This document shows, piece after piece, positions 21,725-59,099 of a DNA stretch of 64,000 nt; position 1 is the stretch's first letter, and every line of letters begins with the position of its first letter. This DNA is from an uncultured Woeseiaceae bacterium (lineage in GTDB: Bacteria; Pseudomonadota; Gammaproteobacteria; Steroidobacterales; Woeseiaceae). Below the pieces are notes generated by a model. It had not been told where the DNA came from, did no database searches, and worked only from the letters and a program-made list of their open reading frames with translations. The stretch is taken from contig CAYOHF010000001.1 of assembly GCA_964403695.1 (NCBI GenBank), positions 38,181 through 102,180 of the forward strand. The letters run 5' to 3'. Position numbers and translations under genes: made by a program.

Positions 21725-22186
21725 CTAATTACAATATTCCTCCACCCGACTCACCGCACGTTCACGTGTCGCAGCCATCTCGGCCTCATCCATGTAAACC
21801 CGCTCGCCATTTTCGTCTTCGCGATATATACGGCGGTTGGTAAGAAATTTTTGTAGCTGGGCTTTATGGGCAGTGCACTGTTTAGCCCGTTCGTCTGCCT
21901 CCGCACGCAACTCATCTCGTGATGGACCAGCAGGTAAGTTAGCGGCCTCTTGCCGCTCCTGGTCCCTGGCATCTAAACGAGCCTGCGTCGTAGCCTGGAC
22001 TTGCGTGTTGTTGGTTGCCTTTGACCTGATAGCAAGGTGTTCAGATTGCGGGTCAACCGGGACATCGCTGTAATGCACGTTGCCCTCCGCATCGGTCCAC
22101 TTATAGATTTCACTTGCGAGGGCGCTGCCGCCGACGAGAAGCGTCAGCAAAGTGGTAGTAACAATCGCAATTGCTCGATTACGCAT
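21725..22186 (-). CDS. DUF4124 domain-containing secreted protein
   Basis: Signal peptide (AIAIVTTTLLTLLVGGSALA), then IYKWTDAEGNVHYSDVP. It is a paralogue in type of the 773-1399 gene. Confidence 0.7.
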   Translation of the reverse strand: MRNRAIAIVTTTLLTLLVGGSALASEIYKWTDAEGNVHYSDVPVDPQSEHLAIRSKATNNTQVQATTQARLDARDQERQEAANLPAGPSRDELRAEADERAKQCTAHKAQLQKFLTNRRIYREDENGERVYMDEAEMAATRERAVSRVEEYCN

Positions 22187-35975: not shown

Positions 35976-35989
35976 GGCCTAAAAATTCC

Positions 35990-40463: not shown

Positions 40464-41369
40464 ATGGCCGATATCAGAAACCTGGACCTGAACCTGCTGC
40501 GTGCCCTTAGCGTGTTGCTGGAAGAGCGCAATGTCTCGCGCACAGCTGAACGGTTGCATGTCACCCAGCCTACAGTCAGTGGCATGCTGTCCCGATTGCG
40601 GAATATATTTGGCGATCCACTGTTCGTGCGTACTCAGCGCGGCCTGTTACCAACGCCTCGTGCCGAGGCATTGGCGCCAGCATTACGACAATTGATCACC
40701 GATGCGATAGCGCTGGTTGACCCGGACGAGTTTGTTCCGCAGACCAGCACTGCAACACTATCGGTGTCAGTCAATGACTATATGCAGTCTGTGATGATTG
40801 TGCCGCTGGTCGCAGAGCTTCGACATTCGGCACCAAACATAAAGCTGGCGGTGCGCAACCTTGAGGTCGCAGCGCTCACATCAAAGCTGGCAAGTGGCGA
40901 CATCGACGTGGCTATTACGATTCCCGAGTTTGTCGATCCGTCTCTGCGTACTCAATTTCTGTACCGCGAAGAGTATGTCGCCGTTGTGCGAGAAGAGCAC
41001 CCGATCCGCGCGCGGCGCGTGTCACTGAAACGGTTCCTCGACTATGACCATGTCCTGGTCTCGCCCTCCGATGGATCCTTCGAAGGCCCAACCGATAACG
41101 TGCTCAGAGAACTTGGTAGCAGCCGGCGAGTTGCTCTTTCCGTGCCGAGTTTTTTTATCCTTACCGAGGTGTTGCAGGAAGATGATCTGATTGCGTTCAT
41201 GCCGCGACGCTTGTTCGCAAGGCGGTCGAAAAACCTGAGGATGATCGGAGCGCCTTTCGATGTACCTGGGTTCGATGTCATTGCTGCATGGCATCCACGT
41301 ACTGATTCTGAGTCAGCGCATGTCTGGATGCGCGGACAACTCGCAAAATTGGGCGAGTCGGTCACATAA
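40464..41369 (+). CDS. LysR-family transcriptional regulator
   Basis: The N-terminal HTH LDLNLLRALSVLLEERNVSRTAERLHVTQPTVSGMLSRLR is followed by a LysR substrate-binding domain. 301 aa. Confidence 0.9.
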   Translation: MADIRNLDLNLLRALSVLLEERNVSRTAERLHVTQPTVSGMLSRLRNIFGDPLFVRTQRGLLPTPRAEALAPALRQLITDAIALVDPDEFVPQTSTATLSVSVNDYMQSVMIVPLVAELRHSAPNIKLAVRNLEVAALTSKLASGDIDVAITIPEFVDPSLRTQFLYREEYVAVVREEHPIRARRVSLKRFLDYDHVLVSPSDGSFEGPTDNVLRELGSSRRVALSVPSFFILTEVLQEDDLIAFMPRRLFARRSKNLRMIGAPFDVPGFDVIAAWHPRTDSESAHVWMRGQLAKLGESVT

Positions 41370-42300
41370 CAAACTGAATAACCACGTACAGGATCGCCAG
41401 CGTAACCGCAAAAGCAACAGCGGCCAGGATGATGTTCCTGGTGTTGCCCGGTGGTTTAACTGCTTTGCTGACTCTCGTGGCGCTACCCAATTGATCCGGC
41501 GTCCTGAAGACACACTCAACAGGACCAAAACGAATTCGATCACCATTGTCGAGGTAGCTCATGTTGCTGCGTTTGCCATTGACGAAAGTGCCGTTCGCTG
41601 ACATTTGATCCGTTAATTTCCAGCGCGCTCCATCCTGGGTTAGCTTGGCGTGGACGCCTGAAACGCCTTGTTCTTCGAGCACGATATCGCGATCTGCGTC
41701 GCAGCCGATCGTCCACTCACCTTGCGTGCCTGCCGATTTCAGATTAATCCGGGCACCTGACATGGCGCCGGTTGAGACGATCAGGACAGGAACATTTACG
41801 TCGTCGGCCATTTCACTGACGCCCTGTTCTCCATCCTGCATCATCTGTTTCAGAGCTGCCGAATCGATAAACTCGGTTTTTGGCCCACCAGCCGATTTCT
41901 GATTCGGATCAATCCATGCCGGCCTTTCCCGGATGCCACTGCCATCGACGTCGATGTCCTCAAGTTTTCGCATCACCGTTTGCTGCGAATCGTTGCTGAC
42001 GGTTTGGTCGTAAGGAATCTTGTATTCGAATTCTTCAAGGTCAAAGCGAATCTTGTCGCCTGAGCGGAGCACGACCGAACTCTCGATCCGCTGGTCATTG
42101 ACGAACGTGCCGTTCGACGAACCCAGGTCTTCGAGTTTAAGCTCATTGCCGCTGATACTGAACTTGGCATGTTGCCGCGACGGATGTCCTTCAGTCAGCA
42201 CCAGGCCCGATTCCGCCAGGCGCCCGGCGATAAGGCCGTCGGTCAACACGGTTTCTTCGCCATTACTTGCTTTTTTAAGAATTAATTGTACGTCCGACAT
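41362..42300 (-). CDS. tail-anchored protein with two FHA domains
   Basis: FHA1 is canonical (GR...., SRQHAKF, SSNGTFVND, GDKIRF). FHA2 is near-canonical (IGCDADRDIVL, VSGVHAKL, SANGTFVNG, GDRIRFG). A C-terminal TM helix IILAAVAFAVTLAILYVVIQFV is present. Confidence 0.85.
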   Translation of the reverse strand: MSDVQLILKKASNGEETVLTDGLIAGRLAESGLVLTEGHPSRQHAKFSISGNELKLEDLGSSNGTFVNDQRIESSVVLRSGDKIRFDLEEFEYKIPYDQTVSNDSQQTVMRKLEDIDVDGSGIRERPAWIDPNQKSAGGPKTEFIDSAALKQMMQDGEQGVSEMADDVNVPVLIVSTGAMSGARINLKSAGTQGEWTIGCDADRDIVLEEQGVSGVHAKLTQDGARWKLTDQMSANGTFVNGKRSNMSYLDNGDRIRFGPVECVFRTPDQLGSATRVSKAVKPPGNTRNIILAAVAFAVTLAILYVVIQFVM

Positions 42301-42320
42301 ACTCGTTCCATATAGCCAGG

Positions 42321-43121
42321 CTATTTAACTGCCCACAGTATCAGGGCGAAAATAATTGCCAGTAGCGGCCCCACCACGAATGGCCACCAACGTGCGTTCA
42401 TGACCCGCCACAAATGGCCGAGTCCTTTTGCATCTTTGAATTCAATAATTATGACACTAGTGTTGTCGCGACCGCCATTAGTGATGGCCGCATCGACGAG
42501 TTCATCGACGGCCGACTGCACATGTTCACAGGATGCCAGTATTTCCGCGATTTCTGAATCTTCAAGTTCACCGTTCAGGCCATCGCTGCAGAGCAATATC
42601 CAGTCACCATAACGCAGTGGAACCTCTGTAATTGACGGCATCGGCTCACCGAGCCCCAGTGTTTGCGTGACCAGGTTGCCGCGCGGGTCCGCACGAATCT
42701 GTTCCTCGGTCAGGATATTTTGCGCGCGCAATAATTCATGGAAGGAATGATCGCGGGAAATTTGTGACAGGTCCTTTTTGCGCCACAAGTAGGCACGACT
42801 ATCGCCGACCCAGGATATCTCCGCCAGGTTATCCGCCAGTTTTGCGACAACAATGGTTGTGCCCATGCCTGACAGCGACTGGTCCTTGTCGGCGGCAGCG
42901 ATAATTGCCTCATGGGCGCCAACAATTTGTTCTTCCGTGGATTTATCCGGTGCAGGTTCGAGCAGGCTTTTGCTGGCGGTCTCGCTGGCGGTCTTGCCAT
43001 TGACGTGACCGCCCATTCCATCAGCGACAAACCAGAGTTTGCGCTCCTCATCCCAGCCGATCGAGTCCTCATTCTCGCCACCGCGGCTGCCGACGTCAGT
43101 TTTGGCTGCAAAATTAAGCAT
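42321..43121 (-). CDS. PP2C-family Ser/Thr protein phosphatase with a C-terminal TM anchor
   Basis: TDVGSRGGENEDS, FVADGMGGHVNG, GMGTT, LLCSDGL and GGRDNTSVI are PP2C motifs. The C-terminal helix is WWPFVVGPLLAIIFALILWAV. Confidence 0.88.
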   Translation of the reverse strand: MLNFAAKTDVGSRGGENEDSIGWDEERKLWFVADGMGGHVNGKTASETASKSLLEPAPDKSTEEQIVGAHEAIIAAADKDQSLSGMGTTIVVAKLADNLAEISWVGDSRAYLWRKKDLSQISRDHSFHELLRAQNILTEEQIRADPRGNLVTQTLGLGEPMPSITEVPLRYGDWILLCSDGLNGELEDSEIAEILASCEHVQSAVDELVDAAITNGGRDNTSVIIIEFKDAKGLGHLWRVMNARWWPFVVGPLLAIIFALILWAVK

Positions 43122-43124
43122 CGC

Positions 43125-44441
43125 TCAGAACTGTCCCTGCACGTCTTGTGCGGTTCGGCTGAAAGACGAAGGATTGAATGTCGAATCGTTTTCGACCTCT
43201 TTATATATTCGGTCGAGTGCAGCAGTTTTTTGTTGCCTGTCGCCCAGCGTGTAACTCAGGCTTTCAAGCCCAAGGTACAACTGTTCCGCTGCATTGAAGT
43301 CGTTCATATTTCCACCTGCTGCAGATTGTATGAGTGCACGTCGAACCGCAACAATAGTGTTCTTGTCGAACGGTCGAGTCGACCACTCACTCTTGCGGGT
43401 TTCAAGCCAGGTAATGAGTGCCCGGCTTGTTTGCCGGACACTCGCAATATTTTCCTGGCCTGAACGAACAAACGCAGCAGTGGCAGCGGTCATCTCTGTC
43501 TGTGCAGAGGTCGATTCAATAGTGCCGACGACGGTTTGCAGAATGATCAGGTGCTGATCCTGCAGCCGCGGTGAACCTGGCAATACACCAGGACCAGCTC
43601 GAGCCGGCGTCCAGCGTTTGTCATCCATTTCATGGTGACATCCGTGGCAGTCATATAGTGCGAGTTCCGGGTACAAGCCTTCATTGGGAACAAGCCTTTG
43701 CCCGACAAGATCGAGATAACGGCGAGCGGCTTCAACCTGGCCGGTGAGCCACAAATTGAACCCCGGTATCTCTCCTTTGCGTTGACGATAGTCTTCGTCA
43801 ACGTCGTAGTGAGCCGGCTGGTTGGTTGTGAACGCCTCCAGTTCAAAACTGAGTCGCGGGTGACCGGCACCCATGATGTCGTGACTGGCAAACTTTTCGG
43901 CCGTTCCCATGTGGCATGACAAACACAGCTCTGCCCGGTCGCCCGGTTTTTCGGTCGGATACATTCCTCGCGCAAGGTTGTCGGCGTGCGTTGCTCCTTC
44001 CGCTGCGTGACTCTTGATCCATTCTTCGGCACCACCGTGACAGGCCTCGCAGCCAACGCCATCACTAAGCTGAAACTTGGGGCCACGTTTTTCCCTTGCG
44101 ACGTTGTCCGTATGGCAATCGAGACAAACTTTTGCGGTAGTGGCGCTGCCGAGGCCAAGATAGTCCGCAATCCGTTTCGATTCGTCACTTGTCAGGGTGC
44201 GATACGCCTGCGAGTGTTTGTCGGCACTGGTCCAGATGCGATATTCGTTCAACCAGACATTGATGTCTTTTTGCCGATCCAGTTTTCCGTGACAAACACT
44301 ACTTGCACAACTAGCGGGGCCTAAGTGTATGTTTTGGTTAATTAATGTTTCATCTGCGAATACATTTTCAGCACTTACAGACAGTGCTGCAATCAAGCAC
44401 AGCAGTCGGCAAGTGGCCGTTTTGTAAGTCGCAGCATTCAT
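43125..44441 (-). CDS. periplasmic multihaem c-type cytochrome (cytochrome c554-like family)
   Basis: Signal peptide. Four CXXCH motifs (CLDCH, CEACH, CLSCH, CHGCH) plus one CX4CH (CASSVCH). The segment W.....DKHSQAY is typical of c554-like proteins. Confidence 0.8.
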   Translation of the reverse strand: MNAATYKTATCRLLCLIAALSVSAENVFADETLINQNIHLGPASCASSVCHGKLDRQKDINVWLNEYRIWTSADKHSQAYRTLTSDESKRIADYLGLGSATTAKVCLDCHTDNVAREKRGPKFQLSDGVGCEACHGGAEEWIKSHAAEGATHADNLARGMYPTEKPGDRAELCLSCHMGTAEKFASHDIMGAGHPRLSFELEAFTTNQPAHYDVDEDYRQRKGEIPGFNLWLTGQVEAARRYLDLVGQRLVPNEGLYPELALYDCHGCHHEMDDKRWTPARAGPGVLPGSPRLQDQHLIILQTVVGTIESTSAQTEMTAATAAFVRSGQENIASVRQTSRALITWLETRKSEWSTRPFDKNTIVAVRRALIQSAAGGNMNDFNAAEQLYLGLESLSYTLGDRQQKTAALDRIYKEVENDSTFNPSSFSRTAQDVQGQF

Positions 44442-44446
44442 TTCAT

Positions 44447-47400
44447 TTACTCACCAGCATCGGTCGTCGCGACATCTTCTGGCGCAGTTTCTTTTGCCGC
44501 GTCGTCAACAAACCATGGTTTCCCTGACTCGTCGAGATACAGGCGGCGCATTTCTTCGAGATTCAATGGTCGCGAACCACGTCTGCCGAACACGGCAACC
44601 TGGCCACCAGTTTCGTCAACGCCGCGATCACGTTCAAGGCCGCGCGACAAACTCAATGCCGTCTTCGACGTCTCGTAACTCGCAATGAGGTCAGGCACAG
44701 GCTCCGGACTAAAGCCATAGAACTTCGGCTGCAGATCCGGTGACGTAAGCTGCACTATCTTAATGCCATTTGCGCCATCGGCAACGTAAGCGAATAACGA
44801 TGCGTTGGTTGTTGCAACAACCACATCGCGTGCATCGTTCAATGCACCGTTTGCATCGAACCGGGTGAGCTCAACCAACGCTTCTGGTCGTTCTGCATCC
44901 ACGATAACCAAGCCGTCCGCTCCCGCAGCAATATAGGCATAAGTTCTGGCGACGAATACCTTGTGCGCATTTGAGAGCGCGATCGTGTTGTTTTCGATCA
45001 GCCTCGCGGAGCCAGGATCGGTGACGTCAATGACGCTAAGCCCTGCACCTGAAGTCACAAACAAATAGCGAAACTGCAATACGCTGGCTCTTGCGTCGTC
45101 CAACGCCACCGTCGCGATCAGTTCCGGGTGTAGTGGATCGTCGACACTAATAATTTTTACGCCGCTATCGGTTGTGATGTAAAGGTAGTAACCACCAACC
45201 GTAATGTGCCGTGCACCATTTAGTACGCCATCGGGGTTCCAGCTTAGCGCGCGCTCCAGGTCATTATTGCGTGGCTCACCATCGACCAGTGTGTTGACAT
45301 TGACCAGGATCAGCCCTTCTTCTGCGTCGATGATAAACGCGTAGTCGTAAAGCGGGTGTATTACCTGCTCGAGGTTATCTATCCGCATGAGGTCGCCCTC
45401 ATTGCGCGCCGGATTGATGTTCTGGTTGGTTGGCAGCGCAACACAGGTCGCGTTCTTCGTCTTGATATGGGTGTCCTGTCCTACCGCACTAAATGGTGAT
45501 GAGATGATGCGTTGGGATATGCCTTTATTGGCGATGCCCGCAACGTCATAGACATTGAACCCTTTCTTGCCTTCCGCCACGTACAGATACTCGCCACGTA
45601 ATTGCAGGCACTGCGCCGTGCCTGCGCCGTGCTGATAGGCTTCTTCGAGCTCAGCACCATTATCTAAGTGCTTCTGATAGAAATCCGGATACGCGTAGCG
45701 ATGCAGGTAGCTGCCAATGACCGCCTGCGGCTCTTCCCACTCGGTCACTGTTACCGCGGAAATTTCTCCCTGCCCGCCGACATAAGCATTGAAACCGATG
45801 AAATTGACGAAGTTGGTTCCCTGCGCCAGCAGTTGCGCCATGATGGCATTGTTATCGTTTTCACCCGAGAGATGGCAATCGACACAGGTCTTGGTCTCCG
45901 TCTTGCGTGCCGTATGCGGAAAATGCGGATTAAATGCCTGCGAACTGAAGCCGCTCGCTGAAATCGGTGGCTGCTGCACGTAAATTCTTTCGCGATTTGA
46001 ATTGGTTGAAGACAACACGAGTGCCGAGCTCGAGCGCACTGGCGCTATCTTGCCGCTTTTCGCTTCGCCGCGGCGACCGATGAGGAACATCTGGTCACGT
46101 GCAACCTGTGGATTGTAGGTGGCATAGTTTCTGGATTCGCCACCTTCATAGTGATGGCGGTCTGTCTTCCAGTTCGCCTCAATTGGTAAGTGACAACCAC
46201 CACAACTCGTGGTCCATGACGTATGGCAGGTGTAACACTCGATTTCGTCATTGGAGTGCGCGAGATTATCGGTCGACACATTGGTGCCCCATAGTTGGGT
46301 ACCGGTGTCCTTGCTCATGAGTTTCGCCCGGGCCGCTTTTTCGTTGTAATTCTCATGTCCCGGCGTAACCGAGTCTTTCACCAGGCTGAGTTGCCATTCC
46401 AGTTCCGGGTCGAGCATCGAGCGCTGATACAAAACGTCATTTTGCCATTCGAAGCGGCGTCTGCCGTCGGGCGTACGCAACGCTTCCAGATCAGCACCGC
46501 CGGATAGTGCAGCTGGCCCCGACGTATAAAGGTTTGGATACGACTGCGCGGTACCGTGACAATCTTTGCAATCGACCTCGACCGCGAGCGCTACTTCGCC
46601 GTAGATATGCCCGTTGCCGTGGTTGTCCTGCGAGAAATGACAGTCCACGCAGTGCATGCCGACATCCACATGGATCGACGACATGTGTACTGCCTTGGCG
46701 AATTTTTCCGGGTCCTCATCGCTGACGACTGCACCCTCATCGTCAAGCAGATTTCCTTTCCTGTCGCGCTTGAAAACCGCACGGAAATTCCAGCCATGGC
46801 CATGGTAGTCGGCGAACTGCGTGTCGTTGAGCTCGGAATTCATCTCCGAAACCCGTTTCAGAAATTCGACATCTGCCCAGTTGCCACGCACAGCAGCACC
46901 TTCCGGATTGCGGTCGAGGATTTCACGCTGTTCCGCAATCGTAGGGTACTGTTGTTCCTCCGGCCACATGGCCGGCGCATCCGATTCGTAATCCCACATC
47001 GTGTAGCCGAGGTAGCTGTTCATGAACATGTTCGGCTGATGCATGTGACAAACCATGCACTGGCTGGTCGGTACCGCGCGGGTAAATGTATGTTTCAACG
47101 GATGGCCCGACTCGTCCTTGTTGATGGTCGGATCTACAGTCTGGGTTTTGCCTTCATGACCGAACTGCGCATATACGCCGGAGTGGCGCGGATCGCGGTC
47201 GTTTGCGTAAACGCTGTGACACGATGAGCAACCGGACTGACGATAGTCGCCCGGCTGGTCGTTGGTGCCCATAAACCAGGTGAACGGATCGTTAAGCCGT
47301 GTCTTGGTAATGTTAATCAGAGGCACTGATATGCGTCCCCCCGTTCCCGGTCCACGATTGGATTGGCGAAAGTCCGGCCGGCCCGGTTCTTCGATGCGCT

Positions 47401-48247: not shown

Positions 48248-48262
48248 AATTACACCAGCACT

Positions 48263-50140: not shown

Positions 50141-50177
50141 TTTGCAGTTGCCGAGCTCAAGGTTCATTCCGGCCCCC

Positions 50178-52229
50178 CTATTTCGCGTCGCAGACATTGT
50201 CGTCTCCCGTCGCAATAAATGGTGCTTGCGGACATTGCACGTAGCGCAAGCGAACGCCCTGCGGTGTGAGATTGTCCGCACGCCGGTCAATCGGCGCGTT
50301 ACCGACGCCGTTACCGAGTTCCAGACCTGCGTTGTGCAGTCCGAGGAAAGAAATCATGTCGTCCTGGTCGATACCGTCGCCGGATACGCCGATACCACCT
50401 ACCAACGTACCATTTCGATAAATGGGCACACTACCGGGGAAGATCTGCAGGCCATTGCCGACGCGGTTGTTCGTAACAGTCGGGGCGAAGGTCAGGGTAT
50501 TGGGATCAACCAGTTCAACGCCGGCGCAGATCGGCCCGACATCGGCAGCGATAATGCCAGCAGCAAAAAGTACATGCTGCAATACGGCGTTGTATGAGAC
50601 GTCCAGTTGCAGCCCGGTAGAAAACGGGCTCCACTGTCCTGCGGCTTTGCTCAACGGACCCGCTCCGTTGGTATCAATGCCATCCGGGTAGTAAGGCCGC
50701 GACAGGTTGCCGCCGGCACGGTCCGAAAAAGCTACCAGCCCATTGGTCAGTGCATCGGGGTCGCCGAGAAAAGCCTGCAGTGCAGTAACGTAGTCATCGA
50801 TTACAACCGGCAGTGAGAACGCCGGACCAGCATCGCTTGTCGTCAGGTAGCTGACGTCCGGCAGTGCGGTGAGAAAATCCGCTGCGGTCGCGGATGAGAA
50901 AAAAGTTGCTGTACGCGCTTTTTGTAATGAAACGTCGGCACCGAATACCGGCGCGTCGCGACTACGCACCATGCCAAGAATTTCACCCTCGGTGTCGACG
51001 ACTGAAATCGTAACTCGTGCAAAAGTGCTTAATGGCTGGCGAATTTGCGCGCGGGCCCGGGTCGCTACGTCGAGCGCATTGCGCAAGATTGTTGTTACGT
51101 CATTCTGCGTCAGTTCATCGCCTGCGAGCGCCGCGCCATCCGTGCCACCAATCGGCGGATAACGGGGTGTTCCTGCTGAATCGACAAAAACGAACGCATC
51201 CAGGCCGGGAAACAGGTTGGCAGCATCTGGTGCTATGCCAGAGGCGTTTGTGCCAAAAAGTGTTCCGTCACGAATAACACCATCGGTGTAACCGACCACG
51301 CTAAGCAAGGCGCCGGTCGCAACCGGAAGCGTGGCAAAGGCGGGCGCAGATGCCGGATCACTTGCGAGGTCTGAAAATCCAACATCACTAAAACGAAACG
51401 TCTTGCCCTCGACGGTAATCTGGTCGCCACGCCGGTCCTGCGGTGCGGCAAAGCCGAAGGTCGCAGCATAGGCGATCATTTCGTCAGCATCGCGGTCACT
51501 GTCGGTTATGACCGGATCAGCTCCGTAAACGCCATCGGCGATAACGCCGACGCCACCGACCACGGTGCCATCTTTATACAGCGGGAAGCCACCCGGATCC
51601 GCCGCCAGGCCCAGCGGTGATCTGTGAGGGCCTGCACTGACGCCAATACCGTCAAATGGCTGGGTAAAATCGGAACAAGCCAGCTGGCTGAACTGGACGC
51701 CAAACAAGGGTCCGCCAGGTTGAAACTGTTCTCCCGGATTGAAATGGTCCTGCACGATCTGGCTTGCGGTTCGGCTCGAAAACGCATTGCCCTCGGAGGA
51801 CAGGTAGGCACCGGTTACTGCTTTTGCGATTGCTGCGAGGTCATCCAGGTTTGCCGCAACCGGAGCAACCGGCAATAGGATGCCCTCCAGACCCGCGGTG
51901 ACCGGTGTCGCACCGCCGACGCCGGCTGTCGTTGATATCAGTACATCACGATTGGCGGCGTTGCCCATGCGATAAACCGCCAGGACATTGCCAACCCGGT
52001 CAACGACTGCCACGGTAGCTTCAACATTTTGTGCCTGTGCTTCGGCGACTGCTTGTGCAATTACCTGCTCGACATCGGCGACCAGCATTCCGGCAGCCGT
52101 CGCTGCACAATTGCCATCACAATTGTTTCCCGAATCGGTCCCCGCATCGCTACTGGTCGGGCTGCCACCCGAACACGCTGACAGAATAAGAATCCACAGA
52201 GGCAAAAACAGCTTATTGCGATTTTTCAT
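50178..52229 (-). CDS. lipoprotein with two GlcG/HbpS-like (DUF336, haem-binding-type) domains
   Basis: Lipobox LILSACSG. Two copies of the DUF336 pattern are present: (1) VAVVDRVGNVLAVYRM...GGFPLYKDGTVVGGVGVIADG; (2) ISVVDTEGEILGMVRSRDAP.FGADVSLQKARTA..F...GSVPIYRNGTLVGGIGVSGDGIDQDD. Confidence 0.7.
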   Translation of the reverse strand: MKNRNKLFLPLWILILSACSGGSPTSSDAGTDSGNNCDGNCAATAAGMLVADVEQVIAQAVAEAQAQNVEATVAVVDRVGNVLAVYRMGNAANRDVLISTTAGVGGATPVTAGLEGILLPVAPVAANLDDLAAIAKAVTGAYLSSEGNAFSSRTASQIVQDHFNPGEQFQPGGPLFGVQFSQLACSDFTQPFDGIGVSAGPHRSPLGLAADPGGFPLYKDGTVVGGVGVIADGVYGADPVITDSDRDADEMIAYAATFGFAAPQDRRGDQITVEGKTFRFSDVGFSDLASDPASAPAFATLPVATGALLSVVGYTDGVIRDGTLFGTNASGIAPDAANLFPGLDAFVFVDSAGTPRYPPIGGTDGAALAGDELTQNDVTTILRNALDVATRARAQIRQPLSTFARVTISVVDTEGEILGMVRSRDAPVFGADVSLQKARTATFFSSATAADFLTALPDVSYLTTSDAGPAFSLPVVIDDYVTALQAFLGDPDALTNGLVAFSDRAGGNLSRPYYPDGIDTNGAGPLSKAAGQWSPFSTGLQLDVSYNAVLQHVLFAAGIIAADVGPICAGVELVDPNTLTFAPTVTNNRVGNGLQIFPGSVPIYRNGTLVGGIGVSGDGIDQDDMISFLGLHNAGLELGNGVGNAPIDRRADNLTPQGVRLRYVQCPQAPFIATGDDNVCDAK

Positions 52230-53947
52230 GGCTGACTCGTTTCTATAGTGGCGGTGTAGTCACTGGCAAATGGATGATAGGAATGACAATCGATACAACT
52301 TGTCGTCACACGTTCCGGCGTTGGTTTATCGCTGTGGCATGCCAGGCAGGTATCGATGTCCGGAATAAGCAAATCGATGCTCTGCGACGATTGATCGGCG
52401 CCGTGACAAACCAGGCAAGCCGCGTCACCGGTCTTCTCATTCATTACCTGGTGGGAAAGGTGATCGAAGCGGCCCGCGGAAAAATAATCGGTGGCCAGTC
52501 GCACCGGGTGTACCTGGTAGCGCGCATAAATTTCACTGTTCACATGTTCCTCGACGATATGGCAGCTGACACACCCTCTTACCGTGAACTGCTCGCGAAT
52601 ATCCTCTGCCGCCGCCTGCGCTGCACAATTGAACGCGGTATCGACACACTCACGTGTGCTGTTGTCCTTATCGGGAATTCTGCGCCGTACGACGGCCTCC
52701 TGTGGCACGCTCGGATCGCTGAACTTACGCAAATACTGGCCCTCCAGCGCGAACATGACTTCTACCGGCTGACCATGTGGCAAGAGGCGATCCGGCATGG
52801 TCGGGTCAAACGTTAGTTCGTGACACTCAACACATTGCGTTTCCATTGTTATTGGCACGAAATGTTCCCGGTCCAGGGAAAGTTCGTGACAATTTCCGCA
52901 GCCAAGCGGGTTGCCATCGCGCAGGTCGGTAACCAGTTCTGCATCCAGGTGCGTGTCATGCGGAAACTTGAGGTTCGACATTTCTACCGCGTTGCTGACC
53001 GCTTCACTTTGTTCCTGCCACTCGAAAGACAGTCCGGTTCCGGCTCGACTGCTGACTGGTTTCAGCAACGTTGCGGCAAAAGCAGGATGATCGGTCTCGG
53101 AAAAACCTGATACCGACGCAATACTTCCGGCAACTGACAACTGATCGGAATCGATATGACAATCGGTACACAATGAATCCGCGCGAATGATCAGGTGTGG
53201 CTCGGGTTCATTGTGTTCCAGATGACAACTTGCACAGCGGGGCGTCGGCTCGAGTGTACTTATTGCCGCCATCGTGTCGGCATGCACATGATCATTGATG
53301 CGCTCGTGACAATTTAGGCAGGCTGTATCCTGCACGCGCTCGAAATTCTGCATGTGACACTGACGACAGTCATCGCCGATCGCAAGTGTATGTGCCGGAT
53401 GCAAAGGACCGCTGGTCCAGAATGCGTCGCTGGGAATCCAGGCCGTATCCGCAAAGCTGTCATCACCGCTACTTTTGAGAAACATTGGCAGCAGGAACGC
53501 GAGCACGATCAATAGACCCGAGATTGTCCAGGCGGCAGAGCGGATGGAGAACCAGGATTGGTAAAGGTCTGTGCGAAATGCGCTCTCGAAAACGCTGGCA
53601 TCGACATTCGCGTCGAGCTCGATCTGGATACCGTGGTCAAAACCCGCCGGTGCGTCTACGAGCATGAGCCGATTGCCACCGATTTCAATAACGTCCCCGG
53701 TTGACAGCGTTGCCGACGTAAGCTCTTCACCGTTGACCAAAACGTTGTAACCGCGGCGACATTTAATCGCCAGCCCGCCCGGCGCAGCCGTGAGCTCTGC
53801 ATGTTCCGCGCCGACGTTATTCCCCAGCACCTGGATCGAGCGGTCCGGGGCACTGCCGAGCGTAATCGTATCCGCGGAGACTTCGACATCGCGATATTCG
53901 GCAATGCCATCGGCGCTGGGTCTTATTTCTCTTAGCAGTACATCCAC
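52226..53947 (-). CDS. FHA-like domain / single TM / decahaem c-type cytochrome fusion protein
   Basis: The N-terminal about 100 aa have an FHA-like pattern (ITLGSAPDRSIQVL...GAEHAEL....GGLAI......VLVNGEEL....L..GDVIEIGGNRLML). The TM helix is WTISGLLIVLAFLLPMFL. Ten CXXCH motifs follow (CRQCH, CLNCH, CASCH, CTDCH, CGNCH, CVECH, CVSCH, CLVCH, CLACH, CIDCH). Confidence 0.8.
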   Translation of the reverse strand: MDVLLREIRPSADGIAEYRDVEVSADTITLGSAPDRSIQVLGNNVGAEHAELTAAPGGLAIKCRRGYNVLVNGEELTSATLSTGDVIEIGGNRLMLVDAPAGFDHGIQIELDANVDASVFESAFRTDLYQSWFSIRSAAWTISGLLIVLAFLLPMFLKSSGDDSFADTAWIPSDAFWTSGPLHPAHTLAIGDDCRQCHMQNFERVQDTACLNCHERINDHVHADTMAAISTLEPTPRCASCHLEHNEPEPHLIIRADSLCTDCHIDSDQLSVAGSIASVSGFSETDHPAFAATLLKPVSSRAGTGLSFEWQEQSEAVSNAVEMSNLKFPHDTHLDAELVTDLRDGNPLGCGNCHELSLDREHFVPITMETQCVECHELTFDPTMPDRLLPHGQPVEVMFALEGQYLRKFSDPSVPQEAVVRRRIPDKDNSTRECVDTAFNCAAQAAAEDIREQFTVRGCVSCHIVEEHVNSEIYARYQVHPVRLATDYFSAGRFDHLSHQVMNEKTGDAACLVCHGADQSSQSIDLLIPDIDTCLACHSDKPTPERVTTSCIDCHSYHPFASDYTATIETSQP

Positions 53948-53951
53948 GGCA

Positions 53952-54845
53952 TCACCAGTAAATGAACGTCGTGACGATATGAATCACGAGCGCTATGAGA
54001 AGTGCGACTGATATTGGGATATGAATCAGCAGCCAGATCCTGATCCGGCCACGCAGACGAATATCGTGAGAAACCCGGCGCAATACAGCCTGACGCCGGC
54101 AAAAAACTTCGAGAAGCTCCTGTAGTAATTCGGTTTCGGCAACTTTGTTGGTTTTCGGTAAGCGACCCGCAATGAAATCGATGACAGGTTGCTGGTCCCT
54201 GTTACTAACTGGCTTGCCACCGTCGGATCTCGCGCCGGACGATGGCCGTATAAAGAGTGACTGATCCTTGCCAACCAGTTGTGCGTATGCGCCACCGCCA
54301 ATTGCGGTGCGTTCTACGGCACTACGTACTGCCAGGTTGATGTCATCAGGACTTTTTGCGCCGAGTTCGCGGGCGCGATTGTCCAGTGAGAAAAGCTCCG
54401 CGAACAGTGCCGATCGCGACGACCCGGAGCGGTTGGCAGTCATCGAATGCGGGTAGTTGATATAGGTGTAAATGCCGTAGAAACCGCTAAAGATGACGAA
54501 ACACATCATCAGGTAGGCCAGCGAGTGCACGTTCCAGCCCAGCTGCCCGGCGCTGTGCAAAGTTGCGACGATAAGCAACGCAGTCCCGAGGTAAACATGG
54601 GCGGAAGTCCAGCCAGCCACCGAGCCAAGTGACGATGAGTAACTGCGTTTCCTGATGCCCAGCATCAGCAACCAGACAATAAGGAGCGCGCCAACAGTTC
54701 CCAGGACATACCCTTGCCAGGTGCCGCCATTCGCTGGCTGAAAGCCGCCCTGGGTCGAATAAAGTATTGCTGATATCACCACCAGCACCAGTGACCACCA
54801 CAAGTAGCGGTTGTTGGCGTAACGCAGAATGCCAACATGGATCAT
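53952..54845 (-). CDS. integral membrane protein with a di-haem-b-type His-X13-His pair on two helices
   Basis: About 5 TM helices. Helix 3 is SAHVYLGTALLIVATLHS and the last helix is LIHIPISVALLIALVIHI, each with two His exactly 14 positions apart. Its start overlaps the upstream oxidoreductase stop (ATGA at 54842-54845). Confidence 0.7.
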   Translation of the reverse strand: MIHVGILRYANNRYLWWSLVLVVISAILYSTQGGFQPANGGTWQGYVLGTVGALLIVWLLMLGIRKRSYSSSLGSVAGWTSAHVYLGTALLIVATLHSAGQLGWNVHSLAYLMMCFVIFSGFYGIYTYINYPHSMTANRSGSSRSALFAELFSLDNRARELGAKSPDDINLAVRSAVERTAIGGGAYAQLVGKDQSLFIRPSSGARSDGGKPVSNRDQQPVIDFIAGRLPKTNKVAETELLQELLEVFCRRQAVLRRVSHDIRLRGRIRIWLLIHIPISVALLIALVIHIVTTFIYW

Positions 54846-57397
54846 CGACGGCGTTCCTCGACCAGGTCAATAAATTGCGCAGGACCTATGCGCATTGCCG
54901 CACCGGTGGGGCATGCGGATACACAGGCCGGGCCACCTTTTTGCCCCACGCAGGCGTCGCACTTGGTGGCCTTCTTGCCTTTCTTTTTCGCCGCGTCTGA
55001 TACCTCGTAGTCGTCCTCCTGGCCAGGTCCGCTGCCGCTGCCAAACATCAGCCAACTGAACAAACCGGGTTTTGCCGGGGCGTCATAATTAAGGCTGATT
55101 ACCTTGTATGGACAATTGGCAACGCAGTTGCCGCAGCCGATGCAGGAGTCGTTGATATAAACCTCGCCACTCTCAGCCCTGCGAATGGCATTCGGCGGGC
55201 AGTCCTTCATGCAGTGCGGTTGCTCACAATGCCGGCAGGAAATTGGTATGTGCACTTCAGCTAACGTTGGGCCCTCTTTTCGGTTAAGCCTCGATATGCC
55301 GGCATGCGTTTCTGCACAGGCTTTTTCACAATTGTCACAACCAATACACAGTGACTCGTCAATGACGAGCACGTTGGTCGCCTCACCGAGACCCTCTGCC
55401 ATCAGGAATTCCATGACCAATCCCGATTCGGGTCGGACCGCCATGCGTGCTTTGTCAGTCACATTCTGGCTGACCGTTTCCTGGAGAACCTTTATCTGGC
55501 CCTCGTCCTTGCGCACCAACTCGATGAACTCCGGACGATTGACCTCAATAGTTTCGACGGCGACAGTCGCCCTGGCGGATTCGCGCCGGGTCGGATCACC
55601 CATGAGCGCCATGTCACCAATGCGCCGACCGCCGCGTACTTCACCAACCAGCACCGCTTCGCCATCGACCATGCGGGAGAGGGCGACACCGCCGGAGCGA
55701 ATGATGTGCAGGCTGTCACCTTGTTCACCTTCAGTGAAAATGATGTCGCCAGCCTTGAAACTGCAAACCTGCACCCGCGAACTGATGTTACGAAGTTCGG
55801 CAACGTTAGCGCGCGGGGCAAATTGTGCCTGCAACTCGCGGACCACAAATATCCACTCAATGCCTTCACGAACTGTATCGTTGGAGTTCATCAGTTTCAG
55901 CATCGTGCGGCGTGGGGACTCAACGACGATGCAACTTGCGCCGGCAACCGCCCGCTCCAGGCGTGGTCGCCCGGACAACAAACTCATCTCGCCGAAGAAT
56001 TCGCCACGCGACAGAGTTGTTTTATCAATGACACCAGCACCGTCTATGTCCCGTTCGAGAGAGACTTCGCCATCGACAATCGTGAAAAATGAGGTGCCGA
56101 ACTCGCCTTCCTCGTAAATTACATCGCCTTCGCGAATTACACGAGTCGTACGTGGCGGTTTGGTATTGGCGGCGAATTTTTCGGCAAGCAGATCGGCTTT
56201 TTTTCTTGCTTCCCCATACTCCGCACCATCGGGGTAGGAAACAATGATGTTGCTTTCGATAACCAGTTCCCTGAAGGCGAGAGCATTCAGCTCACCAAAC
56301 ATGGGTATGAGGCTTTGGAAGCGCTCGATCAGGTCGTCGACCTCGCGCTCATATGGCAAACCGTGAAACTGGTATTCGAGCAGCGGATGATCGGCTGGTT
56401 GTATGAAGTTGCCACCAATGAACTCGACCACGTCGTAGCCCTGGTTCATTGCCTGCTTGATCAGCGGATAACCGGCCAGTGAACCGATGATGTAAATACC
56501 GGGGCAATTGCTCTCGTAATGTCGTGACAGTTGCGGAATCGCATCGCGCTTGTTGCTGGGGAATTCCACGCCGATAGATTCAACAAATTTTCTCGGCGGG
56601 ATTGCGCCCAGTCGTGCAATGATCCGGTCGCAAGGCTGCTCGATCTCGCCCTCAGGCGTATCCAGTGTCGCAAGCAAAGCGTGTTCCGCACCATCGGTCT
56701 GTACGACCGATTTGATCGAAGTGGAATAGTGGCACTCGAGCCGTTCGTCGGGATTGCTGATAGCGGCAAGAATAGCGTTCAGGTTGCCCTCTTTTGCCCG
56801 GCTGAACTCATCGCGCCGGTTAAGGATCCAGACCTGGTTTTGCTCTGCCAGCGCAAGGGCATTTTCGATCGCCGCGTCACCGGCACCGACGACCAGAACC
56901 TTTTCTTCGTCATATTCTTTCGGGTCATCAAGCTGGTATTGCACCCGCGGCAAGTCCTGACCTTCGACGCCAAGCTTGCGCGGGTTTCCTTCCAGCCCGA
57001 TAGCCAGGACGACGGACTCTGCCACGATAGTAGAACCGTCAGTCAGCGCGATACTGAAATTGCCTTTGTCGCCCGTTATGCTTTTGACTTCTGCGCCAAA
57101 GCGAATATTGGCGCCGGTCTTTTGCAAATCCTCCTGCCATTGGCCGAGAATCTGTTCACGAGCACCGGCAGAAAAACGCATGTCGCTGCGCAGATCAAGA
57201 AAGCCAGGTTCGGCCATGACGTGCTTGCCTTTCTGGTATCGTTGCACGGTCTTGGCATGCACACCGAAACCTTCAAGGAGGATATGTGAAGGAGAGGCTG
57301 CGCCGGACTCAGCATCCAGTCGGGCAGCACGGCCTGCGGCACTCAGACCAGCCGGACCCGCACCAATAATGGCGATGCGATAGCTATCCGTCGCCAT
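54842..57397 (-). CDS. FAD/NAD(P)-binding oxidoreductase fused to two cyclic-nucleotide-binding domains and a C-terminal 4Fe-4S poly-ferredoxin
   Basis: Dinucleotide folds IAIIGAGPAGLSAA and VLVVGAGDAAIENA. Two cNMP-binding patterns (FFGEMSLLSGRPRLERAVA; IGDMALMGDPTRRESARA). Cys clusters CIGCDNCEKAC, CRHCEQPHCMKDCP, CIGCGNCVANCP and CDAC...CVSACP. No signal peptide. Confidence 0.85.
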   Translation of the reverse strand: MATDSYRIAIIGAGPAGLSAAGRAARLDAESGAASPSHILLEGFGVHAKTVQRYQKGKHVMAEPGFLDLRSDMRFSAGAREQILGQWQEDLQKTGANIRFGAEVKSITGDKGNFSIALTDGSTIVAESVVLAIGLEGNPRKLGVEGQDLPRVQYQLDDPKEYDEEKVLVVGAGDAAIENALALAEQNQVWILNRRDEFSRAKEGNLNAILAAISNPDERLECHYSTSIKSVVQTDGAEHALLATLDTPEGEIEQPCDRIIARLGAIPPRKFVESIGVEFPSNKRDAIPQLSRHYESNCPGIYIIGSLAGYPLIKQAMNQGYDVVEFIGGNFIQPADHPLLEYQFHGLPYEREVDDLIERFQSLIPMFGELNALAFRELVIESNIIVSYPDGAEYGEARKKADLLAEKFAANTKPPRTTRVIREGDVIYEEGEFGTSFFTIVDGEVSLERDIDGAGVIDKTTLSRGEFFGEMSLLSGRPRLERAVAGASCIVVESPRRTMLKLMNSNDTVREGIEWIFVVRELQAQFAPRANVAELRNISSRVQVCSFKAGDIIFTEGEQGDSLHIIRSGGVALSRMVDGEAVLVGEVRGGRRIGDMALMGDPTRRESARATVAVETIEVNRPEFIELVRKDEGQIKVLQETVSQNVTDKARMAVRPESGLVMEFLMAEGLGEATNVLVIDESLCIGCDNCEKACAETHAGISRLNRKEGPTLAEVHIPISCRHCEQPHCMKDCPPNAIRRAESGEVYINDSCIGCGNCVANCPYKVISLNYDAPAKPGLFSWLMFGSGSGPGQEDDYEVSDAAKKKGKKATKCDACVGQKGGPACVSACPTGAAMRIGPAQFIDLVEERRR

Positions 57398-57444
57398 CAG
57401 CTAATCCGTTTAGCATTGCCCGACCCCCCCCAGGACCACCTAAT

Positions 57445-58968
57445 CTAGAATTGGCCGCGTAGTCCCACCGAGAAAGTACTGCTGGACATGTGATCGCTAC
57501 CAACCAGGAAATCGAATACGCCATAGAGCTGAATTCGTTGTGAAAACACTGCTGCCAGGCCTACGCCGACCAAGCCAAAGTCGGTATCTATATTGTCACT
57601 GGTCGCCTGGAAGCAGGAGAAACACTGCGCCGTATCGAGGCTGAAAAATCCCGGGCCCGCAGCACCGACGAGGCCCTGATTGGCCAGCAGTTCTTCAACA
57701 GAATACTTGGCGATCAATTTCTGCGGATCGTCGCGGAACTCATGATGCCACTCAGCGCGAAACTGCGGGCTGAGGATGCCGAAACTCTTGCTGAATGCCC
57801 GACTAAATGAAACACCCAGGATAGACTTGAATGAATCCACTGTCTGGTCCGCATAACTCAGGGTCAGGCCGCCACCGGCAGGATCAACCTCAGTGTAGCC
57901 ATCGATGCCAATATCACGGTAGGAGAGGCTGAGTGACGTGGTGATATCCCAGTTGCTCTTGTTCACGTCGTATCCAACGGTCGCGCCGCCGGAAAAGAAA
58001 TCACCGCTTGTGCTGCCTAAAAGCCTCGCGTCAACGCCGGGGCAGGGCGTTGCGATCGGGCATGTATTGGCCGAGGTGTAAAACGCGCTACGATCGGTGT
58101 CACTGTCAAGGCTGCCAAACGACAGGATGCCGTCGAAGTACCAGTTGCCGCTATAAAAAGCGCCGAAAAGCGAACCGCTGGTGCTGTCAACATCGACGCC
58201 GCCACCATTAACATTCACGTTGGTGTCAAACTCCGCTTCGTAATTGTCGGTGCCGATTGATACGCCGATGACACCGGAATTCAGCATGTAATCCAGGCCA
58301 AGGGTGACACTGGTGGCGTCGAAATCGAAGCCGTCTTCGGCATCTGTCTGGTCACGATCACCGGTATTGAAACTGCCTTCGACGAACCAGCCGAGCCGAC
58401 TGCCGGCGACTTCATAGTCACCTGCCGCGCCACCGCCGCTGAGTGATACCTGGTTGTAAGTTGGTGAGTTTTTATCTGGATTGTCGTAGGGGTCAGAGTA
58501 GGCAACACGCCCACCGGCGCCCGCGCTGGTGCCGCCCAAGCGCAACGCGTTCAGCCGGCCTGCAATATTCGAGAACTGCGCATTGGTCACGCGCGTCGAC
58601 ATCGTGCTCTGGCTGAACAGTTCTTCACCGGCGACGTTTTGTACTGCTGAAAGAAGCTCCGGGCTGCTGAGACCGAGGTCGCGTGGTGGTCGATTGCCGG
58701 TAGGGTCTGTTTGCAATGCAACTGCGGTCTGTACCATTTCATTGCAGCGCAGGAACAGGTCGCCTTCCTGACCTTCCAGCGCAAAGCCGCCCTGGCCGGC
58801 AAGCGTTCCACAGGCCCGCTGCACAGCGTTGCCCGTCTGTATCTGAATGTCCGTAGCGCCGTTAGCCGGATCGTTGACGAAGTCCGCCAGGTTTTGAGAA
58901 TACGCTTGTGTCGCGAACATCGCGCAGCAAGAACCCATTATGAAACGGCCTGCCGTTATTATTTTCAT
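57445..58968 (-). CDS. autotransporter-type outer-membrane beta-barrel protein with a short passenger
   Basis: Signal peptide (...CAMFATQAYS), a passenger of about 150 aa, then an autotransporter beta-domain pattern (RLNALRLGG..., GWFVEGSFNTGDRD, ...TLGLDY). The C-terminus is FSVGLRGQF. Confidence 0.7.
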   Translation of the reverse strand: MKIITAGRFIMGSCCAMFATQAYSQNLADFVNDPANGATDIQIQTGNAVQRACGTLAGQGGFALEGQEGDLFLRCNEMVQTAVALQTDPTGNRPPRDLGLSSPELLSAVQNVAGEELFSQSTMSTRVTNAQFSNIAGRLNALRLGGTSAGAGGRVAYSDPYDNPDKNSPTYNQVSLSGGGAAGDYEVAGSRLGWFVEGSFNTGDRDQTDAEDGFDFDATSVTLGLDYMLNSGVIGVSIGTDNYEAEFDTNVNVNGGGVDVDSTSGSLFGAFYSGNWYFDGILSFGSLDSDTDRSAFYTSANTCPIATPCPGVDARLLGSTSGDFFSGGATVGYDVNKSNWDITTSLSLSYRDIGIDGYTEVDPAGGGLTLSYADQTVDSFKSILGVSFSRAFSKSFGILSPQFRAEWHHEFRDDPQKLIAKYSVEELLANQGLVGAAGPGFFSLDTAQCFSCFQATSDNIDTDFGLVGVGLAAVFSQRIQLYGVFDFLVGSDHMSSSTFSVGLRGQF

Positions 58969-59099
58969 TGCCCCTACACCCCTGATTTTCTAATTATTAT
59001 TCGAGTCAGTTACTTGCGCGTTTGTGTTGCAAGTACTGCAAATTTCTTATTCCTGGGCCTGGCTATCTGCAACCCCCGATCAACTACCGCTATTTCTTT

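Follow-up and report, generated by a model that had tools for sequence, protein, structure and literature searches.

The window analysed here, a stretch of 64,000 nucleotides (64 kb) from an uncultured Woeseiaceae bacterium (assembly GCA_964403695.1, contig CAYOHF010000001.1), carries a cluster of genes for predicted redox, outer-membrane and signalling proteins that is the subject of this report. Listing and translation of the open reading frames (ORFs) yield ten consecutive minus-strand ORFs, named g0 to g9 in order of transcription, from position 58968 down to 41362. They are separated by gaps of 47, -4, 4, -4, 37, 15, 5, 3 and 20 nucleotides (nt), with ATGA stop/start overlaps at 54842-54845 (g1/g2) and 52226-52229 (g3/g4). 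A first-pass annotation, made by a model from the letters alone, had proposed a single operon, and this is borne out by the common strand, the gaps of -4 to +37 nt from g1 to g9 and the two overlaps; we read g1 to g9 as one operon and a nine-gene unit. A promoter and terminator scan of the cluster gave hits at or below the shuffled expectation and no internal terminator signal, and an Rfam scan of the whole 64 kb matched no family. At its 3' side the cluster abuts a convergent LysR-type gene. The same DNA was recovered in two independent ENA metagenome assemblies, and the locus is therefore no assembly artefact. Pfam and NCBIfam also reproduced all domain calls of the earlier inventory.

The first gene of the unit, g1 (54842..57397, minus strand, as for all genes below), encodes a predicted cytoplasmic FAD/NAD(P)H protein for electron input, with two cNMP_binding domains and four [4Fe-4S] motifs. 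Sequence searches of the PDB relate residues 1-310 to thioredoxin reductase (TrxR)-like flavoproteins, with YpdA/Bdr and TrxR-type ferredoxin-NADP+ reductases among them, residues 416-630 to tandem cyclic nucleotide (cNMP)-binding domains like those of protein kinase A regulatory subunits, and residues 677-848 to a four-cluster module of the HycB/NrfC type, including a match to HycB. The corresponding Pfam matches are Pyr_redox_2, two copies of cNMP_binding (PF00027) and the 4Fe-4S dicluster region PF13247. GxGxxG/A motifs are found at 12 and 171, 16 Cys form the four ferredoxin motifs, and a CxxC redox disulfide is absent. This motif set fits electron transfer between NAD(P)H and an iron-sulfur (FeS) chain, not a disulfide reductase.

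Overlapping with g1 is g2 (53952..54845), a five-transmembrane (5-TM) inner-membrane protein and, on the basis of its motifs, a putative di-haem b cytochrome. It displays WX3HX13H on TM3 and TM5, SGXXG on TM4 and a conserved basic cytoplasmic loop of about 140 amino acids (aa). His83, His97, His275 and His289 are invariant in 37 aligned sequences, and the complete motif set (SGXXG and two WX3HX13H) recurs in 79 of 81 orthologues. No Pfam family is matched by g2 above threshold. Among the 37 aligned members, all give a sub-threshold match to cytochrome b561 (PF01292, best 1.4e-5), 14 match DUF4405 and two match Ferric_reduct (PF01794) at a non-significant E of about 0.09. A fold search of the PDB with the AlphaFold model (predicted local distance difference test, pLDDT, 69 overall, with a weak membrane part) returned nothing below E 0.5, and the g2 profile found no PDB sequence at E <= 10. 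The family as such is large, with 2250 representatives at 50% clustering (E <= 1e-3).

A link between the two proteins comes from Magnetococcus sp. YQC-9, in which P0500 (MEO5345780.1; 10001-13333 of locus L086) is a 1110-aa fusion of g1 and g2, the g1 part sharing 41% identity over 828 aa and the g2 part 30% identity over its full length. This Rosetta-stone arrangement supports a direct physical complex of g1 and g2, and the N-terminus of g2 would therefore be located in the cytoplasm. In L086, nothing but a gene for an FHA-like 8-haem cytochrome (13366-14955) comes after P0500, with no outer-membrane genes nearby.

Two of the c-type cytochromes flank the outer-membrane genes. The product of g3 (52226..53947) is an inner-membrane-anchored decahaem protein, where a single transmembrane helix (139-157) divides a cytoplasmic FHA-like domain from ten periplasmic CXXCH motifs of the cytochrome c3/c7 type. 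An alignment of 29 sequences shows no variation in any of the ten CXXCH or in 11 additional His, a number that would allow bis-His ligation. As an FHA domain the N-terminal part is marginal, matching Pfam FHA at 1e-5 (26.3 bits against a cut-off of 20.7) and Yop-YscD_cpl at 7e-6. More than 180 full-length homologues of g3 with 44-91% identity were found, none with a functional name. The second, g7 (43125..44441), is a periplasmic c554-like cytochrome with four CXXCH and one CX4CH (Pfam Cytochrome_C554 6e-12; PDB 1bvb 1.5e-3), completed by a C-terminal domain that holds no haem motifs. Its score against the DmsE family of NCBIfam is 1.2e-3, 18 bits compared to a cut-off of 192. The prediction of covalent haem at the CXXCH motifs of g3, g6 and g7 draws on these motifs, on how well they are conserved and on the export signals.

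Between these cytochromes lies an outer module of three genes. g4 (50178..52229) encodes a lipoprotein with HbpS/GlcG-like (DUF336) domains at both ends, which matches Pfam HbpS-like at 2e-23 in three stretches and, among PDB sequences, EfgA/GlcG and an extracellular haem-binding protein. The Cys of its LSAC lipobox is invariant in 64 orthologues, and Ser at position +2 after the lipid-bearing Cys suggests sorting to the outer membrane. It is possible that g4 is a tetrapyrrole-binding partner of the barrel encoded next to it.

This barrel protein, g5 (48263..50140, read from Met51), is a predicted outer-membrane beta-barrel of 625 aa with a signal peptide and a C-terminal Tyr. It matches no Pfam family and yields a weak porin match only. 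The AlphaFold model (pLDDT 62) has about 18 long strands; ahead of them, about 120 N-terminal aa make up a periplasmic region in which a pair of Cys is invariant. In Foldseek, the best match of the model is the 18-strand alginate exporter AlgE (E 1.6e-15, TM 0.64), followed by OprD/Occ and chitoporins, while MtrB is not in the top 50. Thus, the outer-membrane barrel of about 625 aa announced in the first-pass annotation stands as far as the barrel model and the signal peptide are concerned, but with some 18 strands it is AlgE-like rather than MtrB-like. At least 7989 homologues were found (of 8000 scored candidates), with no functional name among the 120 listed, and identity among aligned homologues is 65-85%. 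Two local elements of g5 are candidates for docking or plugging: an invariant Cys-X20-Cys hairpin at residues 29-50, and a 56-aa loop at 468-523 that is near-invariant in aligned homologues and modelled with very low confidence.

The largest protein of the unit, g6 (44447..48247, 1266 aa), is predicted to be secreted and combines a decahaem part with ten CXXCH (about 60-830) with a C-terminal LVIVD beta-propeller (about 880-1230, Pfam 3e-13), and 32% of its alignment columns are invariant. No relative was found among PDB sequences at E <= 1. Against ExtM of NCBIfam it reaches 67.7 bits compared to a cut-off of 800, and matches to MtrC-type domains are short and far sub-threshold.

The last two genes form a putative regulatory pair. 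g8 (42321..43121) encodes a PP2C-type Ser/Thr phosphatase with a C-terminal membrane anchor (TM 247-265). It scores 186.5 bits (5e-55) against Stp1 (NCBIfam NF033484), below the equivalog cut-off of 230, and 47.5 bits against PP2C_2 (Pfam PF13672, cut-off 24), with PP2C also matched. The metal-binding motifs DGMGG, GDSR, SDG and DN are conserved, and the catalytic domain is predicted to face the cytoplasm. g9 (41362..42300) is a tail-anchored protein (TM 290-308) with two FHA domains (Pfam FHA 1.3e-34, two stretches), of which FHA1 is canonical (GR, SRxH, NGT) and FHA2 is devoid of the Arg. Simple hydropathy analysis of the unit returns one transmembrane helix for g3, C-terminal anchors for g8 and g9 and hydrophobic signal-peptide cores for g5 and g6; g7 has a signal-like N-terminus and g4 its lipobox. 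These signal peptides, the lipobox and the helices place g3 to g7 outside the cytoplasm, g3 with its cytochrome part, and g1, g8 and g9 inside.

To what extent the genes travel together was assessed with a scan by the g3 alignment over one genome per GTDB species, which recovered at least 300 genomes with a relative. The best 80 loci were fetched, and synteny was scored by BLASTP of the window proteins against all their ORFs; presence counts refer to loci with enough flank, being 53 for the upstream side and 48 otherwise. The order g1 to g8 is kept almost everywhere the flank allows across the roughly 80 loci. None of the 53 loci lacks g1 or g2 (53/53), while g4 and g5 are each found in 46/48, g6 in 41/48, g7 in 44/48 and g8 in 40/48. 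Over the 80 loci, g6 stays closest to its window counterpart (65-78% identity) and g3 is the most divergent (35-69%). Haem-motif counts are preserved as well, with ten in 81 of 85 relatives of g3, ten in all 49 full-length orthologues of g6 (49/49) and four plus one in 48 of 49 for g7. Conserved counts and conserved order together argue that the cluster is not a chance grouping.

The downstream boundary is set by g9, which is the last cluster gene in loci L006, L090 and L091, and follows the PP2C gene in L004 and L005. L090 (Povalibacter) and L091 hold the complete g1 to g9 set, ending with the double-FHA gene and with unrelated genes on either side, and the unit is therefore nine genes. Directly after the cluster of L090, VgrG-like (Phage_GPD/Gp5) and AHH-nuclease-like genes are found (19313-21848), a type VI secretion effector pair that is unrelated to the cluster. 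In a farmland-soil locus, L088, a complete type II secretion system (T2SS) operon (1-9000) is positioned divergently beside the cluster, and the barrel protein there (15001-17583) has an N-terminal SH3-domain extension of about 300 aa.

The closest of the fetched loci, from a Woeseiaceae metagenome-assembled genome (MAG) with 69% identity in g3, matches the window in gene order, GdhA, up1 and g0 included. Further hosts belong to the Steroidobacteraceae, with the cultured Steroidobacter agaridevorans, S. flavus, S. gossypii, Peristeroidobacter soli and P. agariperforans among them, to "Pseudomonadales" MAGs, Spongiibacteraceae, Oceanicoccus, Paraglaciecola, Marinobacter salexigens and Marinobacter sp. 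S6332. An alphaproteobacterial contig, L087, carries the genes in the order g7-g1-g2-g3-g4-g5-g6.

The gene upstream of g1, g0 (57445..58968), encodes an autotransporter beta-domain with a short passenger (Pfam PF03797, 8e-40). The suggestion that it might be part of the operon did not survive the comparison, as g0 is a variable neighbour, found in 13/53 loci in changing position and orientation and absent from L090 and L091. Rather, it belongs to an accessory trio that recurs beside the cluster, consisting of the autotransporter, up1 and, in other genomes, a Hanks Ser/Thr kinase. At least one member of the trio occurs in 24/53 loci and the kinase in 21/53 (about 40%), in variable orientation, and in five loci (L010, L031, L032, L050 and L054) the trio is inserted between g3 and g4. 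Positions 57445-61838 of the window correspond to g0 and up1 of the trio, the kinase being absent; up1 itself (59100..61838, minus strand) is a Sel1-repeat, coiled-coil and caspase-like (Peptidase_C14) protein according to Pfam. Some of the Hanks kinases of the trio possess periplasmic CsgG/LpoB/PEGA domains.

The first-pass annotation had put the system forward as a candidate for an undescribed one, and this cannot be maintained in full: g1, g2, g3 and g7 are homologues of PtdE, PtdF, PtdG and PtdD, and related cores have been reported before (PMC5566968; 10.1101/2023.11.21.568154; 10.64898/2026.01.22.701106). He et al. 2017 (PMC5566968) predicted a gene cluster named PCC4, which encodes a porin and a 5-TM inner-membrane protein along with multihaem cytochromes of 4, 5 and 10 haems. 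In their marine subgroup II, the gene of the inner-membrane protein is immediately preceded by a PF13247 Fe-S gene, and in one genome the two are annotated as fused. The inner-membrane protein of PCC3/PCC4 was described with five transmembrane helices, SGXXG and two WX3HX13H, and compared to the di-haem ferric-reductase domain. A 2023 preprint (10.1101/2023.11.21.568154) presented ptdABCDEFG, encoding a pentahaem cytochrome, a porin, an annotated FAD/NAD(P) oxidoreductase, a tetrahaem cytochrome, a cNMP/FeS protein, a ferric-reductase-like membrane protein and a decahaem cytochrome. Two groups have thus independently read clusters of the ptd/PCC4 type as porin-cytochrome complexes (PMC5566968; 10.1101/2023.11.21.568154).

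For the sequence comparison, a TARA contig, L089, stands in for PCC4/ptd, with its equation to PCC4 made by published description only. L089 encodes a 5-haem cytochrome, an outer-membrane protein, two c554-like cytochromes (4+1 motifs), a homologue of g1, the inner-membrane protein and an FHA-decahaem protein. Here, g1 shares 46% identity with the PtdE counterpart, and the Fe-S/cNMP gene is located directly upstream of the inner-membrane gene, as in the window; g2 shares 34% with PtdF and the same motif set; g3 shares 26% with PtdG, along with ten haems and an N-terminal FHA domain; and g7, likened to PtdD, is 31-32% identical to both c554-like proteins. PCC4/Ptd and the window cluster moreover both occur in marine Gamma- and Alphaproteobacteria. 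On the other hand, the NrfA-like pentahaem PtdA is absent from the window, the L089 pentahaem protein matching g6 over 84 aa only (E 4e-4), and the ptd-type porin is not detectably related to g5, the profile of which found no match to the L089 outer-membrane protein at E <= 10 with the HMMER filters off, compared to 1e-217 or better on orthologues. Conversely, the double HbpS-like lipoprotein (absent from L089), the decahaem-LVIVD propeller protein, the PP2C phosphatase and the double-FHA protein are extra in the window. Aggregated, the inner-membrane motifs, the upstream Fe-S/cNMP gene and the decahaem and tetrahaem cytochromes of PCC4/Ptd are all found in the window, whereas the pentahaem cytochrome and the family's own porin are not. 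We thus read the cluster from its sequence as a variant of the predicted, experimentally uncharacterised PCC4/Ptd family, with its own outer module and phospho-regulatory pair.

Similar cores have surfaced elsewhere. In Ferrigenium straubiae (10.64898/2026.01.22.701106), genes for a [4Fe-4S] protein and a 5-TM protein neighbour that of a nonahaem cytochrome (NHC) of FHA-TM-multihaem build, which is anchored in the inner membrane, and FHA-multihaem fusions were called previously unreported. By description only, this is the same three-gene core as g1-g2-g3, although with nine haems in place of ten, an FeS protein described as free of FAD and cNMP domains, and no outer-membrane block or PP2C/FHA pair reported. 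Furthermore, "Group 1" of a survey of karst MAGs (PMC13264449, FEMS Microbiol Ecol 2026) features a large decahaem gene (4-5 kb) beside a porin of about 20 strands, with a ferredoxin-NADP+ reductase gene nearby in 7/11, at a site where Steroidobacterales are abundant; the inner-membrane, FHA, HbpS, PP2C and cNMP parts were not analysed there. Likened by description, Group 1 probably has the same architecture as the window cluster. The data are congruent with a separable core of g1-g2-g3, usually accompanied by a c554-like cytochrome, and interchangeable outer modules: within the g2 family, the core occurs on its own in Magnetococcus (L086), and a soil version resides beside the T2SS of L088. 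No dissection of the combination of a g4-g5-g6 module with a PP2C/FHA pair was found in the searchable literature.

The earlier statement that the layout matches neither the Mtr/Pio/Mto nor the Geobacter clusters is upheld by Pfam, by the NCBIfam cut-offs and by the fold search. With MtrCAB, MtoAB and PioAB, the window cluster shares the logic of multihaem cytochromes encoded together with an outer-membrane barrel, and the decahaem count, but it lacks a barrel of the MtrB/PioB family (26-28 strands) and any MtrA/DmsE match at cut-off. Input differs too: a quinol dehydrogenase of the CymA/NapC type feeds MtrCAB, whereas the window supplies an NAD(P)H flavo-FeS protein and a putative cytochrome b. 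As for the Geobacter Ext and Omb-Oma-Omc systems, the ExtM score of 67.7 bits (cut-off 800) is accompanied by about 15-27 bits for ExtN, ExtO and GSU2203. A known respiratory complex (ACIII, HAO/c554, Nrf, Mtr or Ext) was also considered and rejected, the family scores being far below the cut-offs.

For the inner-membrane step, a possible functional analogue is offered by NOX/FRE and MsrQ-Fre, in which NAD(P)H reduces a flavin, and electrons pass via two bis-His b haems, stacked across the membrane on H-X13-H helices, to an acceptor outside the cytoplasm. The invariant H-X13-H pairs of g2 are compatible with the same working principle for g1-g2. The parts are however dissimilar: g2 has five transmembrane helices, reaches PF01794 in two of 37 members only at E ~0.09 and has no structural match, and the flavin domain of NOX/FRE has the FNR fold, whereas that of g1 is TrxR-like and belongs to another polypeptide than the putative haem protein, the four FeS clusters and two cNMP domains intervening.

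Considering these findings, we judge it probable, if by no wide measure, that the cluster encodes a regulated, NAD(P)H-driven electron-export system that spans the envelope. NAD(P)H would reduce the FAD of g1, from where electrons would run along its four [4Fe-4S] clusters and traverse the inner membrane via g2, whose four invariant His would ligate two b haems. The ten c haems of g3, itself anchored in the membrane, would then receive them, and the c554-like g7 would relay them to the decahaem-propeller protein g6 as the likely terminus. g4 and the approximately 18-strand g5 would constitute an outer-membrane station that either docks g6 or admits the acceptor. Flux may be controlled both at g1, through the cyclic nucleotides that it would bind, and through phosphorylation on Ser/Thr, with g8 and g9 tethered to the same membrane. 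The outward direction is favoured because the NAD(P)H/FeS input is of low potential and a quinone-reactive subunit is not recognisable. The system would then act as a reductive electron valve that bypasses quinones and conserves no energy, which would make sense of tight control by cNMP, PP2C and FHA proteins; we know of no description of such control over an electron chain of this kind.

A bolder formulation is a cNMP- and phosphothreonine-gated valve for NAD(P)H electrons as the bacterial, envelope-spanning counterpart of eukaryotic NOX/FRE, with the AlgE-like barrel and the HbpS-like lipoprotein as a novel type of outer-membrane redox station. Heterotrophs that abound in sediment and soil (Woeseiaceae, Steroidobacteraceae, Marinobacter) could then unload reducing equivalents straight from the pyridine-nucleotide pool, past the quinones, on acceptors in the periplasm or outside the cell, for instance metals, humics or O2 (yielding superoxide). 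In this complete form we regard the proposal as tentative, and rather unlikely to hold in all its parts.

Several observations weigh against electron export as outlined. The most doubtful step is the crossing of the outer membrane. An 18-strand barrel of the AlgE/OprD kind is probably too narrow to sheath a decahaem cytochrome in the way MtrB does, as judged from a g5 model with a pLDDT of only 62. Thus, the path drawn in the first-pass annotation, from NAD(P)H over FAD, FeS, two b haems and 24-25 c haems to the barrel, is consistent with motif conservation, synteny and the g1-g2 fusion, but falters at the AlgE-like g5. The likely terminal redox protein, g6, may reside in the periplasm or at the cell surface. 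Three possibilities can be envisaged: a redox station formed by g4 and g5, transfer of g6 to the surface by another route, or entry of the acceptor through g5 with the chemistry taking place in the periplasm. Further inwards, we infer the two b haems of g2 from motifs only, in a protein with a weak model and no PDB relative.

The proposed phosphorylation control has its own difficulties. In the FHA-like domain of g3 and its family, Ser replaces the phosphate-binding Arg, and Gly/Ala the Ser. Deprived of these canonical residues, it is therefore probably a phospho-independent interaction domain. Relatives in L089 (10844-12523, ptd-type) and in L086 (13366-14955, Magnetococcus) keep the Gly-Arg, and the ptd-type protein retains both residues that g3 lacks, which suggests a shift from phospho-dependent to phospho-independent binding in g3, coinciding with the gain of a separate double-FHA protein. 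The FHA-like domain on the decahaem protein, as first annotated, is hence real as a match, yet not in its residues for reading phosphothreonine. Moreover, BLASTP with three cluster-linked kinases found no Ser/Thr kinase in the 64-kb window, and the PP2C and FHA2 genes are absent from the alphaproteobacterial version L087; phosphorylation control would therefore be lineage-specific. Of the unusual ensemble of phosphothreonine readers, phosphatase and cNMP sensors, what stands is the PP2C of g8, FHA1 of g9 and the cNMP domains of g1, and what does not is the degenerate FHA of g3 and a kinase in the window. Most of the cultured hosts (Steroidobacter, Marinobacter) are not known to be metal respirers. 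Lastly, there is no experimental study of any member of the cluster family, and the function of ptd was termed "completely unknown" (10.1101/2023.11.21.568154).

The doubts over the barrel lead to a different assignment of the same parts, in which g6 is a periplasmic enzyme that reduces or oxidises a soluble compound (for instance an N-, S-, Se- or metal-oxyanion, or a chelate), this substrate enters via g5, and g1-g2-g3-g7 supply or remove electrons. We consider this, the main rival, possible, although unlikely. The resemblance of g5 to narrow 18-strand substrate channels (AlgE, OprD/Occ, chitoporin) would be explained, and g6 appears more enzyme-like than wire-like, given that no other protein of the cluster is as conserved (65-78%) and that each of its haems corresponds to about 77 aa. 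In the ptd sister cluster, an NrfA-like pentahaem protein occupies the slot equivalent to g6, and in NCBIfam the weak similarity of g6 points to ExtM, from an operon for selenite/tellurite reduction. However, g6 shows neither a catalytic signature nor a known enzyme relative in Pfam, NCBIfam or PDB sequences, descriptions of the LVIVD propeller usually assign it to the cell surface, the channel-like g5 model is of low confidence, and the T2SS operon that adjoins the L088 cluster may hint at secretion of the decahaem-propeller protein.

Electrons might also move in the opposite direction, from donors in the periplasm or outside the cell, such as Fe(II), Mn(II), sulfide or a cathode, via g6, g7 and g3 to g2, and onwards to quinone or, through g1, to NAD(P)+. 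Reduction of NAD(P)+ via FeS clusters by donors at the Fe(II) level is strongly uphill, and inward electron movement proceeds against the membrane potential, both matters of established bioenergetics. Most of the hosts are known as heterotrophs, and g1 to g9 contain no recognisable quinone-reactive subunit. Most PCC-bearing MAGs of the karst survey were likewise read as heterotrophs (PMC13264449). In favour of uptake, g2 is weakly similar to the quinone-reactive cytochrome b561 and Ni-hydrogenase cytochrome b, and the studies that detected PCC4 and the FHA-nonahaem module in Fe(II) oxidisers assigned this inward sense to them (PMC5566968; 10.64898/2026.01.22.701106). On balance, uptake of electrons seems improbable for the window cluster. 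Still less credit is given by us to a sensor of redox or haem stress, where the HbpS-like lipoprotein and the cytochromes would report the redox state of the envelope to FHA, PP2C, kinase and cNMP modules with no bulk flux. HbpS-family proteins are extracytoplasmic redox or haem sensors in Streptomyces, in line with the HbpS-like domain matches of g4, and the density of signalling domains in the cluster is unusual. A total of 25 haems, four FeS clusters and a flavin would however be a large investment for a sensor, the unit as delimited in L090 and L091 includes no conserved transcription factor or histidine kinase, and the g1-g2-g3 core occurs without HbpS, PP2C and FHA2 in Magnetococcus and ptd-type loci.

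Should the electron-export path hold true, the NAD(P)H pool would be linked directly to periplasmic or extracellular redox chemistry without involvement of quinones, outside the Mtr/Omc paradigm. The family itself is large, with at least 300 species genomes that have a g3 relative, about 8000 barrel homologues and the 2250 clustered (50%) representatives of g2, and with some of the commonest marine-sediment and soil bacteria as hosts. Cultured and potentially tractable hosts are among them (Steroidobacter, Peristeroidobacter and Marinobacter salexigens). The comparison also unites PCC4, ptd and the FHA-nonahaem module of Ferrigenium in one family, the links to PCC4 and Ferrigenium being by published descriptions, not by sequences.

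The remainder of the window adds minor observations. A defence-system reading was dropped, as a PADLOC scan of g1, g8, g9, g0 and up1 gave generic cNMP/PP2C similarity only. The kinase-like ABC1/UbiB gene at 6142-7770 is unrelated housekeeping. Outside the conserved cluster, two adjoining minus-strand genes at 33894-38203 encode TPR-rich, paralogue-like proteins of about 700 aa, of which only the 737-aa member (35990-38203) matched the winged-helix family Trans_reg_C at the threshold used. Finally, hemX and hemY at 15456-17941, in the context of a haem-biosynthesis operon, look like ordinary chromosomal housekeeping.

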